Notes: a model not told the origin generated them from the sequence alone. 64,000 bases of DNA from an uncultured Bacilli bacterium (GCA_934168205.1 CAKPMX010000003.1:66753-130752); one strand, 5' to 3'; numbered from the stretch's first letter, positions 14,584 to 42,199 are shown. Numbers and translations: made by a program.

Positions 14584-14615
14584 GAAAAAAAAGAATCTGC
14601 AGTAATTACAGATTC
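14584..14615 (-). terminator. Intrinsic terminator closing the T4SS/Tad locus
   Basis: On the minus strand: GAATCTG-loop-CAGATTC (7-bp stem, 14593-14615) followed by a T-run (plus-strand A-run 14584-14592). It lies directly after the stop at 14623. Confidence 0.6.
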
Positions 14616-14622
14616 CTACTTA

Positions 14623-15879
14623 TTATTTAATTATATATGGATTTTTCTCAGTTCCATTTCCAGAACTGATCATGATTCTACTACTTAGTTTTACTACTGG
14701 TCTAATACGATTGTATGCATTACATTTTGTTTCGGTAACGCTTCCTTGTTCATCTACAATGAATACGGTTGAGCTACTATTAGCTACTGCTGTTGCGGTC
14801 CACCAACGATAATCAGCGGCTAGATAGTTGTAGTTTTGACAGGCTGGACTTTGTGGACTAGTACAATTTGGATCAATACTAGCATTAATATAGTCTGATA
14901 CTGTTAATAAACCAAGTTTTTGTCCAGCAACTGTACTTTTACATTCTAGTTCGTTAGTATTATTGGTACTGTCAAGAGTTCTTTTTCCGGTGCAAACTTC
15001 AAAGCTGGATAATTTTGTCTTATCAGTTTCACTTAAGAATACTAAGCCTTCTTTTGTCTCATTATACAACTCTTCAAGATATTCTTTTATTCTACTTGTG
15101 GAATAATTATTTATACCAATGTTATATTTTACTTCATTATTGTATCTATCATCCCAAGCAGCTGAATATCCAGCGTATTCTTCTTTAATTAAGTAAGCAT
15201 TGTTATTGCTGTCGATTTTAACTATACGCCAAAGTTCTTCATTTATTTTAACATAATTGTTAACCATTTCGCCACGGAAGACTAATCCATTGTTCATTTT
15301 GTATAAACCATAGCCAGAAGTAACTACTTTAGAATCTTCTTTAACTGCTGCAGCTATTGTTTTGTCACTATAAGCATCTCCACAGTTTAAAGATGGCGTA
15401 TATATATATTCTTCACCTGATTTAGATACACTTACTTTTCCAGTACAAGTAACACCTTTTTTTGTGTATTCACTTAAGTCTTTCATTTTTCCAGCCAAAG
15501 CTAGAGTTGATGCCTCTATTTCAACAATTTGAGTTTCCTTCTTTGGAAGACTTTCTGGATTATCTGCAAAGTATGATTTAGCGGCATTAGTCATAATCTC
15601 TTCAATTTTTTCATAAGAATAATTTCCCTTAGTGAAGGCTGTTGCTATACTTAAAACTATAAATAAAAGAACTATACCACCAATAACTATAAATGCTAGT
15701 TTTAGAATGAATTTTTTAAAGTCGTCTTGTCCTTTATTTTTAGAACTTTTGCTTTCTTCTTCATCTTCTTCATCATCGTCTTCTTCAACAGTTTCCTCTT
15801 CAATTTCTTCTTCAAATTCGTCAGCATCTATGTCGTTTACTTTTCCATTTTTTTTGCTTTGATTAAAATTAAGATTCAT
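14623..15879 (-). CDS. Membrane-anchored surface protein with acidic N-terminus and a C-terminal module shared with ORF 36937..38724
   Basis: 418 aa. D/E-rich cytoplasmic head, one TM (LAFIVIGGIVLLFIVLSIATAF). Extracellular part contains NNYVKINEELWRIVKID...RIRPVVKLS...GNGTEKNPYIIK. Confidence 0.6.
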   Translation of the reverse strand: MNLNFNQSKKNGKVNDIDADEFEEEIEEETVEEDDDEEDEEESKSSKNKGQDDFKKFILKLAFIVIGGIVLLFIVLSIATAFTKGNYSYEKIEEIMTNAAKSYFADNPESLPKKETQIVEIEASTLALAGKMKDLSEYTKKGVTCTGKVSVSKSGEEYIYTPSLNCGDAYSDKTIAAAVKEDSKVVTSGYGLYKMNNGLVFRGEMVNNYVKINEELWRIVKIDSNNNAYLIKEEYAGYSAAWDDRYNNEVKYNIGINNYSTSRIKEYLEELYNETKEGLVFLSETDKTKLSSFEVCTGKRTLDSTNNTNELECKSTVAGQKLGLLTVSDYINASIDPNCTSPQSPACQNYNYLAADYRWWTATAVANSSSTVFIVDEQGSVTETKCNAYNRIRPVVKLSSRIMISSGNGTEKNPYIIK

Positions 15880-15902
15880 ATTATTTAATTCCTTTCATTA
15901 TA

Positions 15903-40375: not shown

Positions 40376-40421
40376 TTAATACAAGCTAATTTTTAGCTCG
40401 TATTTTATAGCATTTTAAGTA

Positions 40422-42110
40422 TTAAGCATTTGTTGGATTATATACTGTACCAGTAAACCATACTTCTCCAGTATCTTTATCTCTGATTATATACATATAT
40501 GGTTTATCAAATGTTAAATCTATTGTTACAACTGGGACATCAAATAGATAATCAAAACCACCAGCAGTAGATCCAAAACCACCCATTACTGTTGCGGCAG
40601 CTGCTTTAATACCATCGTTTGAGAATTCAATATTAGCTTTATGTATAGCACTATCTATATATGCGCCAGTAGCTATTTCTGATAAATCTGATTTATCTTT
40701 ATCAAATATATTTGTTATACCTAATGCTTTTAAATCATCAACTAGTTGTAATTCATATTCATATTTAAATAATGGTATTTTGCCAGTTATTTGAGTGACT
40801 TTTCCTTTTTCAAAGTTATTTAATTCTATTGTTTTTAAATTACTGATGATATTGTTGACTTTCTTAGCGTTAGTATTTTTTATGTAATCAGTTAAGCTTT
40901 CATTAGTTGGCATAATTCCAACATATTCTAAAGTAGTACCATTGTATGTCTTTAAGTCTTTAGCGAATGATTTTACATTATCGTCTATATAGAAGTAATA
41001 ATCAGTTGATGTATCTACTCTTTTATAATTAGAATCTAATTGTTCAATAAATTTTTCAACATATTTATCTACATCTAACTCATTACTCATTTTTGCATAT
41101 TCATAACTTTCTGGATCTTTTAGCCAGTCAGTATAAGCATCTGTGATAGTCTTTTTAATATTATCTCTTCCTAGAGTGCTTACGATGTCATAATTATTAA
41201 TTGATGAACCAAATTCTACTGAATCAACCTCTTGTCCATTGAAGTTTACTTTTTCATATGTACTTTCAATTAATGGTATTGAAGTTGAATATTTTTCATG
41301 GTCATAATCAACACTATATCGATCGCGATAGTTGTTTGTTGTTGCTTGAATCTTTTTATTCCATTCCATATCGATTGCTAAAGCATTTATCAAGAAGAAA
41401 TATTTATCTTTTACAGTTTTATCATCTAATATATTATTAACTAAATTAAATGTTTTATTACTAACCCAGCTATTAATAGTATTAGCACTTGTAAAGTCAT
41501 CATATATTACTTCAGCATTGTATTTATTATTTAGATTTTTAGCATAGCTTTCTTTTACTTGATTTTTGTATGTGTTGTTGATAAATACTGCATTCGCAAA
41601 TGACATATTGTTACTATTAACATATTTATTTGATTTATATCCACCAATGATGTCATCAATTTGTTCTTTTGTAGAACCTTTTGCTCCTTCACTAAGCATT
41701 GCTAAAGCATATTTTATTGATAATGGGCTATATAGCTTATTCTTTTCACCTGATTCTAGCATTAAAAATGCTAAGTCAAAGTCTTCTATAGAATTTCCTG
41801 ACATCCTATATGCTGATACTTTCTTTGGCTCATTAGATATTACATCTTTTTTGTTGTCTTTATTGCCTTTTGTTAAGACAAAATATGTGCCAAGTAATGC
41901 TAATAAAACTATAATGATAATAATTACTGCGAAGTTTTTATTTTTCTTTTTTGGCTTTTCTTCTTTTGATGTTCCGCTTTTTGTTGCTTCATTATTTTCT
42001 ACACTTGTTTTTTCCTCGTTTTCTTCTGTTTCTTTTACTACTACTTCATTTTCTACATTAGTGTTTTCTTTAGTTTCTAATGTCTCATTTTTGTTTTCGT
42101 TATTTTCCAT
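40422..42110 (-). CDS. Membrane-anchored serpin-family protease inhibitor
   Basis: 562 aa. Acidic N-terminus, then TM (FAVIIIIIVLLALLGTYFVL). Serpin core (ANAVFINNTYKNQV..., INSWVSNKT). Hinge/RCL GIKAAAATVMGGFGSTAGG. C-terminus FDKPYMYIIRDKDTGEVWFTGTVYNP. Confidence 0.85.
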   Translation of the reverse strand: MENNENKNETLETKENTNVENEVVVKETEENEEKTSVENNEATKSGTSKEEKPKKKNKNFAVIIIIIVLLALLGTYFVLTKGNKDNKKDVISNEPKKVSAYRMSGNSIEDFDLAFLMLESGEKNKLYSPLSIKYALAMLSEGAKGSTKEQIDDIIGGYKSNKYVNSNNMSFANAVFINNTYKNQVKESYAKNLNNKYNAEVIYDDFTSANTINSWVSNKTFNLVNNILDDKTVKDKYFFLINALAIDMEWNKKIQATTNNYRDRYSVDYDHEKYSTSIPLIESTYEKVNFNGQEVDSVEFGSSINNYDIVSTLGRDNIKKTITDAYTDWLKDPESYEYAKMSNELDVDKYVEKFIEQLDSNYKRVDTSTDYYFYIDDNVKSFAKDLKTYNGTTLEYVGIMPTNESLTDYIKNTNAKKVNNIISNLKTIELNNFEKGKVTQITGKIPLFKYEYELQLVDDLKALGITNIFDKDKSDLSEIATGAYIDSAIHKANIEFSNDGIKAAAATVMGGFGSTAGGFDYLFDVPVVTIDLTFDKPYMYIIRDKDTGEVWFTGTVYNPTNA

Positions 42111-42171
42111 AACTAGTATCTCACCTACCTTAAATAAATATTATACTTTATTAGTGAAAAACGCAATATAA

Positions 42172-42199
42172 AATTAAAAAAAAACAGTCATCTTGACTG
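42172..42199 (-). terminator. Intrinsic terminator after greA
   Basis: Minus strand CAGTCA-AGA-TGACTG followed by a long T-run (plus-strand A-run 42172-42184). Confidence 0.6.

Follow-up and report, generated by a model that had tools for sequence, protein, structure and literature searches.

A lineage-fixed type IV secretion and filament locus of conjugative-plasmid ancestry, without mobility genes at the locus, in the uncultured gut order RF39

According to one proposal, chromosomal type IV secretion systems (T4SSs) that lack a relaxase, the MOBless T4SSs, are conjugation systems that have been domesticated to serve different functions (PMC3158045). In Patescibacteria the T4SS is chromosomal, mostly relaxase-less and equipped with VirB2-like pilins, and it is essential for the epibiotic growth of Southlakia epibionticum (PMC12857230; PMC12102498). 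The transfer region of pAW63 encodes VirD4, VirB4 and VirB11 homologues together (PMC9673590). The locus described here lies in a stretch of 64,000 nucleotides (the window, 64 kb) from an uncultured Bacilli bacterium (GCA_934168205.1, CAKPMX010000003.1:66753-130752), whose host is assigned to the uncultured gut order RF39 and is CAG-877-like. It consists of 22 tightly packed co-directional genes forming one block of ~26 kb on the minus strand (positions 14591-40352), and its closest relatives are the T4SSs of pAW63/pBMB67-type plasmids of the Bacillus cereus group and, in kind, the T4SS of Patescibacteria. The block is a lineage-fixed, intact and strongly constrained T4SS-plus-filament apparatus of plasmid ancestry with no mobility genes at the locus. 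The block is thus no mobile element, and it has probably taken on a different function.

Among plasmids, the best VirB4 matches are found on Bacillus thuringiensis conjugative plasmids, with an identity of only ~29%, and none of 72,556 plasmids encodes a VirB4 with more than 30% identity. On pBMB68 the homologous genes are arranged in two parts. The first has the order MobP3 relaxase, VirD4 (CD1115 family), a small protein, TrbL, PrgI, a protein of 227 amino acids (aa), DUF87 (VirB4) and NlpC/P60, and the second, further along, has the order 851-aa protein, DUF5411, SAF, AAA ATPase, T2SSE ATPase, two hypothetical membrane proteins, small proteins and DUF4320. RF39 profiles match eight pBMB68 proteins: VirD4, VirB4, the open reading frame (ORF) of the VirB4 N-domain, PrgI, both membrane proteins, the T2SSE ATPase (1.3e-37) and SAF/CpaB (1e-34). 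Since the matches fall in both parts, the T4SS half and the Tad-like half of the RF39 block are taken as one inherited apparatus. The components common to the locus and the pAW63/pBMB68-type tra region are VirD4, TrbL/VirB6, PrgI/VirB3, a split VirB4 and a wall hydrolase, together with a large exposed protein, DUF5411, SAF/CpaB, an AAA protein at the TadZ position (g332 in RF39, whose match to its pBMB68 counterpart is weak, E 0.004), the T2SSE ATPase and two membrane proteins. In contrast to the RF39 locus, pBMB68 has the MobP3 relaxase beside VirD4, a primase, a toxin-antitoxin system and replication genes; the module order differs, and the plasmid VirD4 is without the FFDDFF tail of the RF39 protein. 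Beyond the pBMB68 complement, the RF39 locus has a sortase and DUF6273 surface proteins. The RF39 locus is the plasmid-type apparatus minus its DNA-processing and maintenance genes.

The Patescibacteria belong to a different phylum and the likeness is in kind only. Both systems are of the monoderm type with VirB1-, VirB3-, VirB4-, VirB6- and VirD4-like parts and VirB2-like pilins, both are chromosomal and lineage-wide, and the hosts of both are auxotrophic with reduced genomes; the patescibacterial machine is thought to have been co-opted from conjugation (PMC12857230; PMC12102498). Essentiality was established there by transposon insertion sequencing (Tn-seq), whereas what is shown for the RF39 machine is purifying selection. 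Unlike the patescibacterial system, the RF39 block includes a VirB11/TadA-like module and a sortase/adhesin cassette, and it has two pilin-like genes in the window versus six. The locus is chromosomal, lineage-wide and without a relaxase of its own, and it has VirB2-like pilins, an assignment that lies below the Pfam gathering score. VirB4, VirD4, VirB6-like and VirB3/PrgI-like proteins and a wall hydrolase, parts of a monoderm MPF-FATA-like T4SS, are present; with the VirB2-like proteins, they bear out the first-pass annotation of this DNA, which had placed a T4SS with a coupling protein between 14584 and 42199.

The genomes of RF39 are reduced and auxotrophic with many biosynthetic pathways missing, including those for fatty acids, amino acids and vitamins (PMC6784871). 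Near-identical VirB4 proteins carry the labels 'Mycoplasma sp. CAG:877' or 'Bacilli bacterium'. VirB4 is encoded by at least 586 of 600 pattern-matching stretches from GTDB species representatives (one genome per species), and the best 80 of these constitute the comparative set, in which L-numbers denote homologous loci. One of them comes from Candidatus Faecimonas gallistercoris, placed by GTDB in genus CAG-877, family CAG-611 and order RF39 (PMC8035907). The best 80 VirB4 proteins are 83-98% identical and represent different species from the gut of humans, ruminants, rabbits, mice and chickens. All 80 loci agree in gene order and strand, and the orthologues of the locus genes are full length. 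The median cross-species identity is 88% for VirB4, 84% for the flanking RmuC, 71% for VirD4 and 73-79% for two platform-like proteins, and it falls to 39-46% for VirB6, the hydrolase, g276 and g418. VirB4 is better conserved than tryptophanyl-tRNA synthetase (TrpRS), for which the tblastn range is 54-80%. The ratios of nonsynonymous to synonymous substitution (dN/dS) against five related species are 0.019-0.026 for VirB4, 0.009-0.046 for RmuC and 0.065-0.17 for VirD4. The ATPases of the apparatus are under housekeeping-level purifying selection, and its exposed parts evolve fast. Among 1.84 billion representatives of 50%-identity clusters, the whole VirB4 clade is one cluster, the next ones having 45%, 41% and then at most 35% identity. 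The RF39 genomics papers examined do not mention such a secretion system, and no paper linking RF39 to a T4SS or VirB4 was found in a searchable literature that is incomplete, which is absence of evidence only.

The position of the block is also conserved. The rhodanese/DedA/RmuC junction is kept in ~60/80 loci, and the greA junction is kept in two divergent loci, L082 and L083, in which g948 is only 32-35% identical and the order is U32-U32-HD-small proteins-GreA-g521-g595-sortase-g948-DUF5411-CpaB-ATPase. When RmuC was used as the only anchor, 37 metagenome contigs had at least 4.5 kb upstream of it, and VirD4 is there in 35/37. The two RmuC contigs without a T4SS were considered as empty sites and rejected, since RmuC lies there amid other housekeeping or sporulation genes with no greA-rhodanese junction. 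The search for an empty site in relatives, proposed in the first-pass annotation, found no such greA-to-rhodanese junction among the loci and contigs examined. In the most distant RF39 clade, which includes a complete circular genome, pncA and pncB follow VirD4 and no mobility gene is present. This conservation pattern is the opposite of that of an integrative and conjugative element (ICE), in agreement with the first-pass view that the region is not an ICE or an integrative and mobilisable element (IME) in the integrated state.

Mobility genes and integration marks are missing from the locus. The Pfam scans covered 56 ORFs of at least 83 aa, which account for almost every ORF of 100 aa or longer except those nested on the opposite strand, and among the ORFs below ~80 aa they took in only the gene for the 57-aa pilin-like protein; the window represents 64 kb of a ~1.5-Mb genome, the complete RF39 genome among the loci having 1,517,539 bp. 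No relaxase, Rep_trans, tyrosine or serine recombinase, DDE transposase, ParA/ParB or toxin-antitoxin family was detected in the 56 ORFs. The direct-repeat pairs in the computed search are either imperfect and of low complexity or due to the paralogous ends of two surface proteins, and none is a credible att-like pair that brackets the locus. Codon usage is host-like: the relative synonymous codon usage (RSCU) of locus and flanks correlates with r = 0.989, as compared with 0.988 between left and right flank, and the G+C content at third codon positions (GC3) is 0.178 versus 0.169. The absence of mobility genes and flanking repeats and the flank-like codon style, all noted by eye in the first-pass annotation, are therefore borne out by computation. 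That annotation had also named three ORFs as possible hiding places of a relaxase or recombinase (18183-18956, 14623-15879 and 38735-40300). Each has an N-terminal transmembrane (TM) segment, several in the case of 38735-40300, followed by a large hydrophilic domain. Because these domains are read as extracytoplasmic, the three proteins are not plausible DNA-processing enzymes. Among the 50 best Foldseek matches of the g332 model there is no HUH-relaxase or recombinase structure.

The nearest named outgroup VirB4, from Thomasclavelia ramosa (33% identity), lies in a conventional ICE that shares with the RF39 locus a split VirB4, VirB3-like and VirB6-like proteins, a hydrolase, and a sortase with surface or pilin proteins in one block. 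It differs in having a single-stranded DNA-binding protein (SSB), a Toprim primase and, at its end, a serine recombinase, next to core genes. Since these genes were picked up, the same inspection detects mobility genes where they are present. At the RF39 locus there is neither relaxase nor integrase, neither att nor empty site, and no foreign composition.

Within the T4SS half, VirB4 is encoded by two ORFs. The ATPase ORF (21224-23014) matches NF045975 with 4e-105 over model positions 295-891, as well as PF19044, PF12846, PF01935 and the CD1110 family (5.8e-51), and the 181-aa N-domain ORF (23014-23559) matches model positions 100-279 and the TraC-like PF26593. Every locus spanning both parts shows this two-ORF arrangement. 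A frameshift pseudogene was considered and rejected, given this recurrence and the occurrence of the split on plasmids and ICEs as well. The 1-nt overlap of the ORFs suggests that their translation may be coupled. VirB3/PrgI-like protein (23544-23855) has two TM segments, and its RF39-orthologue hidden Markov model (HMM) matches pBMB68 PrgI with 2.8e-5. The extended polytopic VirB6/TrbL-like protein (23877-25784) occupies the same position as in pBMB68 and matches PF19597 TrbL_4 with 6.3e-6, narrowly missing the gathering score. The small membrane proteins encoded at 26326-26667 and 25763-26257 are VirB2-like and paralogous. They match PF18895 T4SS_pilin with 1.2e-4, below the gathering score, and the Mbov_0395 pilin-like family with 0.033; both queries match one and the same gene in L076, L080 and L081. 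Between the VirB2-like genes (26257-26326 in the window), many species from L013 to L079 have ~1 kb of extra sequence or, at the second of these genes, an enlarged ORF of up to ~500 aa. The pilin region thus varies in gene number or size among species.

The cell-wall hydrolase, a VirB1 analogue (18967-21201), combines a SpoIID-like domain (PF08486, 1.5e-12) with a C39-like peptidase (PF13529, 1.2e-5). In L078 (11769-16711; from the complete metagenome-assembled genome OZ006970.1), and also in L071, L074 and L076, an M23 peptidase and an NlpC/P60 protein stand at this position. The replacement in this distant RF39 clade is a non-orthologous swap of the wall-opening enzyme. Next to the hydrolase gene, g276 (18183-18956; 257 aa) encodes an N-terminal TM anchor and an extracytoplasmic domain, in which a DxDxDG...E motif is conserved and two Cys residues are near-invariant. 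It has no family match and is a possible VirB8-position protein. The last gene of the block, g418 (14623-15879), which is kept 3' of VirD4 in 67 loci, encodes an acidic cytoplasmic N-terminus, a TM segment and an extracellular DUF6273-like domain (PF19789, 0.0013).

The VirD4-type coupling protein (15903-18122) belongs to PF02534 (1.9e-54) and to the NCBIfam CD1115 family NF045973 (8.8e-88, 295 bits versus a cutoff of 250). Its Walker A (GATGSGKT) and Walker B (DEFAN) motifs are intact, as are the Walker motifs of all three ATPases of the block, and it retains the TrwB all-alpha-domain signature. Behind a hypervariable linker of ~200 aa, the extreme C-terminus is conserved, with the consensus DDD(D/E)FFDDFFD(N/E). 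In the window the motif reads DDDFFDDFFDN (codons 15906-15938). The core FFDDFFD(N/E) is kept in 69/74 orthologues (L002-L081), and the other five differ by one or two residues. The motif is found neither in pBMB68 VirD4 nor anywhere else in the window. From its sequence it looks like a short linear docking motif for a partner. In other systems, adaptors or relaxosome proteins dock onto an acidic-aromatic tail at the C-terminus of the coupling protein, and by this analogy the near-invariant tail makes a conserved partner likely. The selection on VirD4 and its tail support the view that the locus has kept a working coupling protein, whose retention the first-pass annotation had noted.

The inventory of the first-pass annotation overlooked the Tad/VirB11-like module, which lies at 26726-33283 in the same block as the T4SS, and the sortase/adhesin cassette. 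The VirB11/TadA(CpaF)-family ATPase (30200-31903) matches PF00437 (T2SSE) with 1.3e-28, and VirB11 (5e-34) and TadA-family (1.9e-31) models, which score equally and both stay below cutoffs. Its tail of ~230 aa (30200-30900) is of low complexity, rich in Pro, Thr, Gln and Val, with internal repeats (e.g. 30305-30356 and 30461-30512). The length of the ATPase ranges from 365 to 598 aa between species on account of this variable tail, which also accounts for the raised dN/dS of the gene. The CpaB/RcpC-SAF protein (31933-32736) matches PF16976 (6.5e-5) and TIGR03177 (8.5e-9), both below cutoffs. Two polytopic membrane proteins, g300 (29273-30175) and g269 (28464-29273), stand at the TadB/TadC position. 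They are paralogous (hhalign E 5e-5), and their link to T2SSF is weak (E 0.008-0.013, hhalign versus two Streptomyces T2SSF proteins). They have no match in Pfam, NCBIfam or PDB sequences, and Pfam searches with all members of the g300 alignment gave noise. A Sinorhizobium region searched for more T2SSF sequences held no homologues, and the single-sequence model of g300 (predicted local distance difference test, pLDDT, 55) is too poor to use.

The 57-aa pilin-like protein (28220-28393) starts with MKAATGELNLTV, followed by a hydrophobic helix. Its N-terminus is kept across species as MKAATGELN(L/M)TV, and not as the Flp G/xxxxEY motif. The g149 protein (27750-28199), with an M(R/K)(D/E)AxGG start, a hydrophobic segment and no family match, would be a TadE-like minor pilin by position only. 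The only soluble cytoplasmic protein of the locus without a known family is g332 (26726-27724), with a receiver-like N-domain and a degenerate ParA/MinD-like domain. Its AlphaFold2 model, made from database homologues, has a pLDDT of 80.7, and its top Foldseek matches in the PDB, ParA, HypB, BcsQ and FleN, are weak (E 1.5e-3 to 3e-2). Pfam searches with all members of its alignment returned noise only, and orthologue-profile searches of g269, g300 and g332 against PDB sequences returned nothing meaningful. The model points to a TadZ/CpaE architecture for g332, rather than that of a nuclease or recombinase. No prepilin peptidase (A24, TadV) was detected in the window by the Pfam scans. Given the weak T2SSF link, the non-Flp start and the lack of a peptidase in the window, the module is described as Tad/VirB11-like by architecture and not as a Tad pilus by membership.

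The surface cassette lies at the upstream end of the block. The first gene, g521 (38735-40300), encodes a polytopic membrane protein with, as read from its sequence, a C-terminal extracytoplasmic domain and no Pfam or NCBIfam match. Genes for 518-527 aa stand at its position in L082, L083 and L084, and it adjoins greA in other species. The g595 product (36937-38724) is an N-terminally anchored surface protein with an Ig-like domain (PF16403, 2.9e-15) and DUF6273 (PF19789, 5.6e-8), and its C-terminal part is paralogous to that of g418. The class B-like sortase (36117-36929) matches PF04203 (4.2e-9) and, below cutoff, TIGR03064 (1.4e-17), and its TLATC and His motifs are intact. No canonical sortase substrate with a cell-wall sorting signal was found in the window. 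The large, secreted and Cys-rich g948 protein (33287-36133) has no family match. It has 340 homologues with identity down to 30%, and it is only 42-45% identical on contigs that agree in length with those carrying VirB4 at 98-99%. Its gene is always 5' of that for the DUF5411 protein (32759-33283; PF17424, 3e-49), which has an N-terminal hydrophobic segment and is minor-pilin-like. The g948 protein is a candidate filament-tip protein or adhesin. In L082 (7399-19780) the cassette g595-like/sortase/g948-like/DUF5411 is present as a tandem duplicate, and L084 (1-5781) has an extra g948-like/DUF5411 pair beside two proteins with prepilin N-methylation motifs, one of them with leucine-rich repeats. 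Fast evolution and duplication of exposed parts are as expected for contact with a variable target, phages or immunity.

The block is bounded downstream by a terminator-like hairpin with an 11-bp stem and a T-run (14591-14617). Upstream (40324-40377), a terminator-like hairpin (40377-40357) after the serpin gene is followed by a promoter-like site (40352-40324) before g521. Both upstream elements are consensus matches only and are plausible because of their position in a 122-nt gap. A scan of the locus with Rfam gave no RNA element at gathering thresholds or at E up to 0.1. The membrane-anchored serpin (40422-42110, minus strand; PF00079, 2.2e-46), which the first-pass annotation had placed inside the locus, lies outside the conserved machine. 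It was considered as a machine component and rejected, since in L082 and L083 greA is followed by the g521 homologue with no serpin in between. With terminator-like hairpins on both sides and no counterpart at this position in those loci, it is a species-level accessory insertion, and it may serve in protection against host or microbial proteases.

The window has ~28% G+C, and nearly all its genes are on the minus strand. The flanks consist of housekeeping genes, as the first reading had it from rhodanese, DedA and rmuC on one side and greA on the other. The first flank has rubrerythrin, Fur, Lon, trigger factor, T-box-controlled TrpRS, RmuC, DedA and rhodanese, and the second has GreA, an HD hydrolase, two U32 peptidases, MltG, RuvX, IreB, a rhomboid protein, RluD, LspA, DnaE and TypA; the trigger factor and TrpRS assignments are precomputed Pfam labels. 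The TrpRS gene (8951-9952) is preceded by a T-box leader (8631-8841), which scores 105 bits and exceeds the gathering threshold. Beside greA are genes for two adjoining 209-aa proteins without Pfam match (42786-43415 and 43467-44096); at the same position L082 has 203- and 205-aa genes and L083 a single 236-aa gene.

The components suggest how the machine might work. The VirB11/TadA-like ATPase, the two platform-like proteins, CpaB and the TadZ-like protein would assemble a short filament of the 57-aa pilin-like protein, with g149 and the DUF5411 protein as minor subunits and with g948 and the surface proteins as elements of contact and adhesion. The hydrolase would open the cell wall, VirB4, VirB3, VirB6 and the VirB2-like proteins would form the channel, and the acidic-aromatic tail conserved at the C-terminus of VirD4 would bring in a substrate or adaptor. 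The outcome would be routine contact-dependent exchange with another cell and not the transfer of a mobile element; the cargo would be protein or something else, as has been suggested for the T4SS of Patescibacteria. The account that we consider reasonably likely is that a conjugation-derived monoderm (Firmicutes-type) T4SS has become a permanent, vertically inherited chromosomal organelle of RF39, most likely for non-conjugative contact-dependent exchange. Several points weigh against it. Every recognisable part is of conjugative DNA-transfer ancestry, VirD4 carries the TrwB signature, and DNA is a fully possible substrate; a relaxase and oriT, the origin of transfer, may be encoded outside the 64 kb of the ~1.5-Mb genome. 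The assignment of the platform proteins draws on gene order, topology, paralogy and weak scores, the motif of the pilin-like protein is not a canonical Flp motif, and neither a prepilin peptidase nor a sortase substrate was found in the window.

Of the alternatives, a fixed conjugation apparatus that still moves DNA survives best, and it is unlikely while deserving serious consideration. It would act by chromosomal exchange between RF39 cells, comparable to mycoplasma chromosomal transfer or to Hfr-like transfer, or by mobilisation in trans, with a relaxase that is unrecognised or encoded elsewhere. The homologous pBMB68/pAW63-type apparatus is conjugative, and RF39 VirD4 falls above cutoff in the CD1115 conjugal-transfer family. 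The best NCBIfam model for both VirB4 ORFs is the Mbov_0397 family of mycoplasma-ICE VirB4 proteins (352 bits versus a cutoff of 590 at 4e-105), and the pilin-like protein weakly matches an ICE pilin-like family. The mycoplasma ICEs (CDS5/VirD4 and CDS17/VirB4) come from a related host group (Bacilli/Mollicutes) and use a DDE recombinase, and to our knowledge no canonical relaxase has been reported for them. They are mobile and without VirB1- and VirB8-like parts, whereas the RF39 locus has no transposase, includes a wall hydrolase and is fixed in place. The machines of mycoplasma ICEs move chromosomal DNA (PMC12857230). Synonymous divergence (dS) within the RF39 block points in the same direction: between 14623 and 32736 it is uneven against L004, the nearest species, and L002, differing up to ten-fold between adjacent genes, with values against L004 of 0.12 for CpaB, 0.16 for g103 and 0.17 for g332, and of 1.13 for g300, 1.20 for VirB6 and 0.74 for VirB4. 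This spread hints at a possible recombination mosaic inside the locus. Against DNA transfer stands the lack of any relaxase, SSB, primase or oriT-like element in the 64 kb and, by inspection of Pfam labels, in L078 and L082-L084. At E < 0.01, tblastn matched neither the MobP3 relaxase nor the primase of pBMB68 to the window or to any of 86 other loci (83 RF39-type), though on the plasmid the relaxase adjoins VirD4. The housekeeping-level constraint on VirB4 also exceeds what is expected for occasional gene exchange. A non-conjugative role is therefore favoured over chromosomal DNA exchange, on evidence that cannot decide between DNA and protein as the substrate.

It is improbable that the block represents two independent neighbours, in which a Tad-type adhesive pilus and a sortase/adhesin cassette would serve gut colonisation and a minimal T4SS would be a system apart. 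The order CpaB-(TadZ)-ATPase-two polytopic proteins-small pilin-TadE-like mirrors that of the canonical Streptomyces Tad locus, and the T2SSE-family ATPase, the CpaB model match below cutoff and the TadZ-like two-domain fold of g332 add to the likeness. Tad pili act alone as adhesins in other bacteria, and promoter-like sites with 11/12 matches lie in the gaps before the pilin-like genes (28455-28427 and 26722-26694). The RF39 module differs from Tad/Flp systems in having no detectable T2SSF signature, in its TGELN... pilin start and in being embedded in a T4SS. The two modules adjoin in every locus that covers both (~70/80), both occur within the pBMB68 transfer region, and pAW63-type regions have long been described with VirB11, VirB4 and VirD4 together (PMC9673590). 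On a Peribacillus plasmid typed as non-mobilisable (NZ_CP133764.1; L088, 13251-17681), a CpaF/VirB11 ATPase and homologues of g300 and g269 are followed by three small ORFs and run straight into a TrbC/VirB2 gene. The arrangement of the Peribacillus block suggests that the ATPase module may be functionally tied to VirB2-like pilins.

A machine for DNA uptake (competence) or DNA release, comparable to Helicobacter ComB, archaeal Ced or the gonococcal genetic island (GGI), is more doubtful still. Relaxase-less T4SS-like importers exist, and filament and ATPase modules drive DNA uptake in other Gram-positives. Helicobacter ComB and archaeal Ced/Ted resemble the RF39 locus in being T4SS-related, relaxase-less and chromosomally encoded. 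RF39 are short of many biosynthetic pathways (PMC6784871), which would fit uptake. However, ComB has no coupling protein, whereas RF39 VirD4 is present and constrained. The CedB (0.0019) and CedD (1.3e-11) models match around the P-loop only, far below cutoffs, and no kinship in sequence or architecture was found. The window contains no ComEC, ComEA or DprA gene, and competence in Saccharibacteria needs type IV pili and ComEC, the loss of which did not explain the essentiality of the T4SS (PMC12857230). The first-pass proposal of a domesticated T4SS thus stands as regards chromosomal fixation, to which the comparative data have been added, while ComB and Ced/Ted, its chosen parallels, are not the closest analogues. 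The view that the block is a standard ICE or IME, intact or in decay, with its mobility genes outside the window, has already been largely refuted: all recognisable parts derive from conjugative elements, but the position and gene order shared by 80 species, the conservation of both junctions, the host-like codon usage without att-like repeats, the intact full-length genes under strong purifying selection and the housekeeping flanks of 14 kb and 22 kb speak against it.

RF39 is among the most widespread uncultured bacterial orders in human and livestock gut. A ~26-kb machine in the same place across several hundred species is a strong candidate for a key to the lifestyle of these bacteria, be it attachment, cargo or chromosomal gene exchange. 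After the Patescibacteria, RF39 would be the second monoderm lineage with reduced genomes to have domesticated a conjugation machine, and independently so, which bears on how T4SSs change function. The finding also draws attention to the uncharacterised VirB11/Tad-like half of pAW63-type transfer regions. The pilin-like proteins, the fast-evolving exposed protein and the VirD4 tail provide handles for cultivation and imaging. More speculatively, and rather against the odds, RF39 may live by cell contact, with the T4SS-plus-filament block as an indispensable organelle of attachment and exchange that evolved independently in Bacilli from plasmid-type conjugation and in which the VirD4 tail docks a lineage-specific adaptor or cargo. 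If this is true, contact-living RF39 would parallel the epibiotic Saccharibacteria and their essential T4SS.

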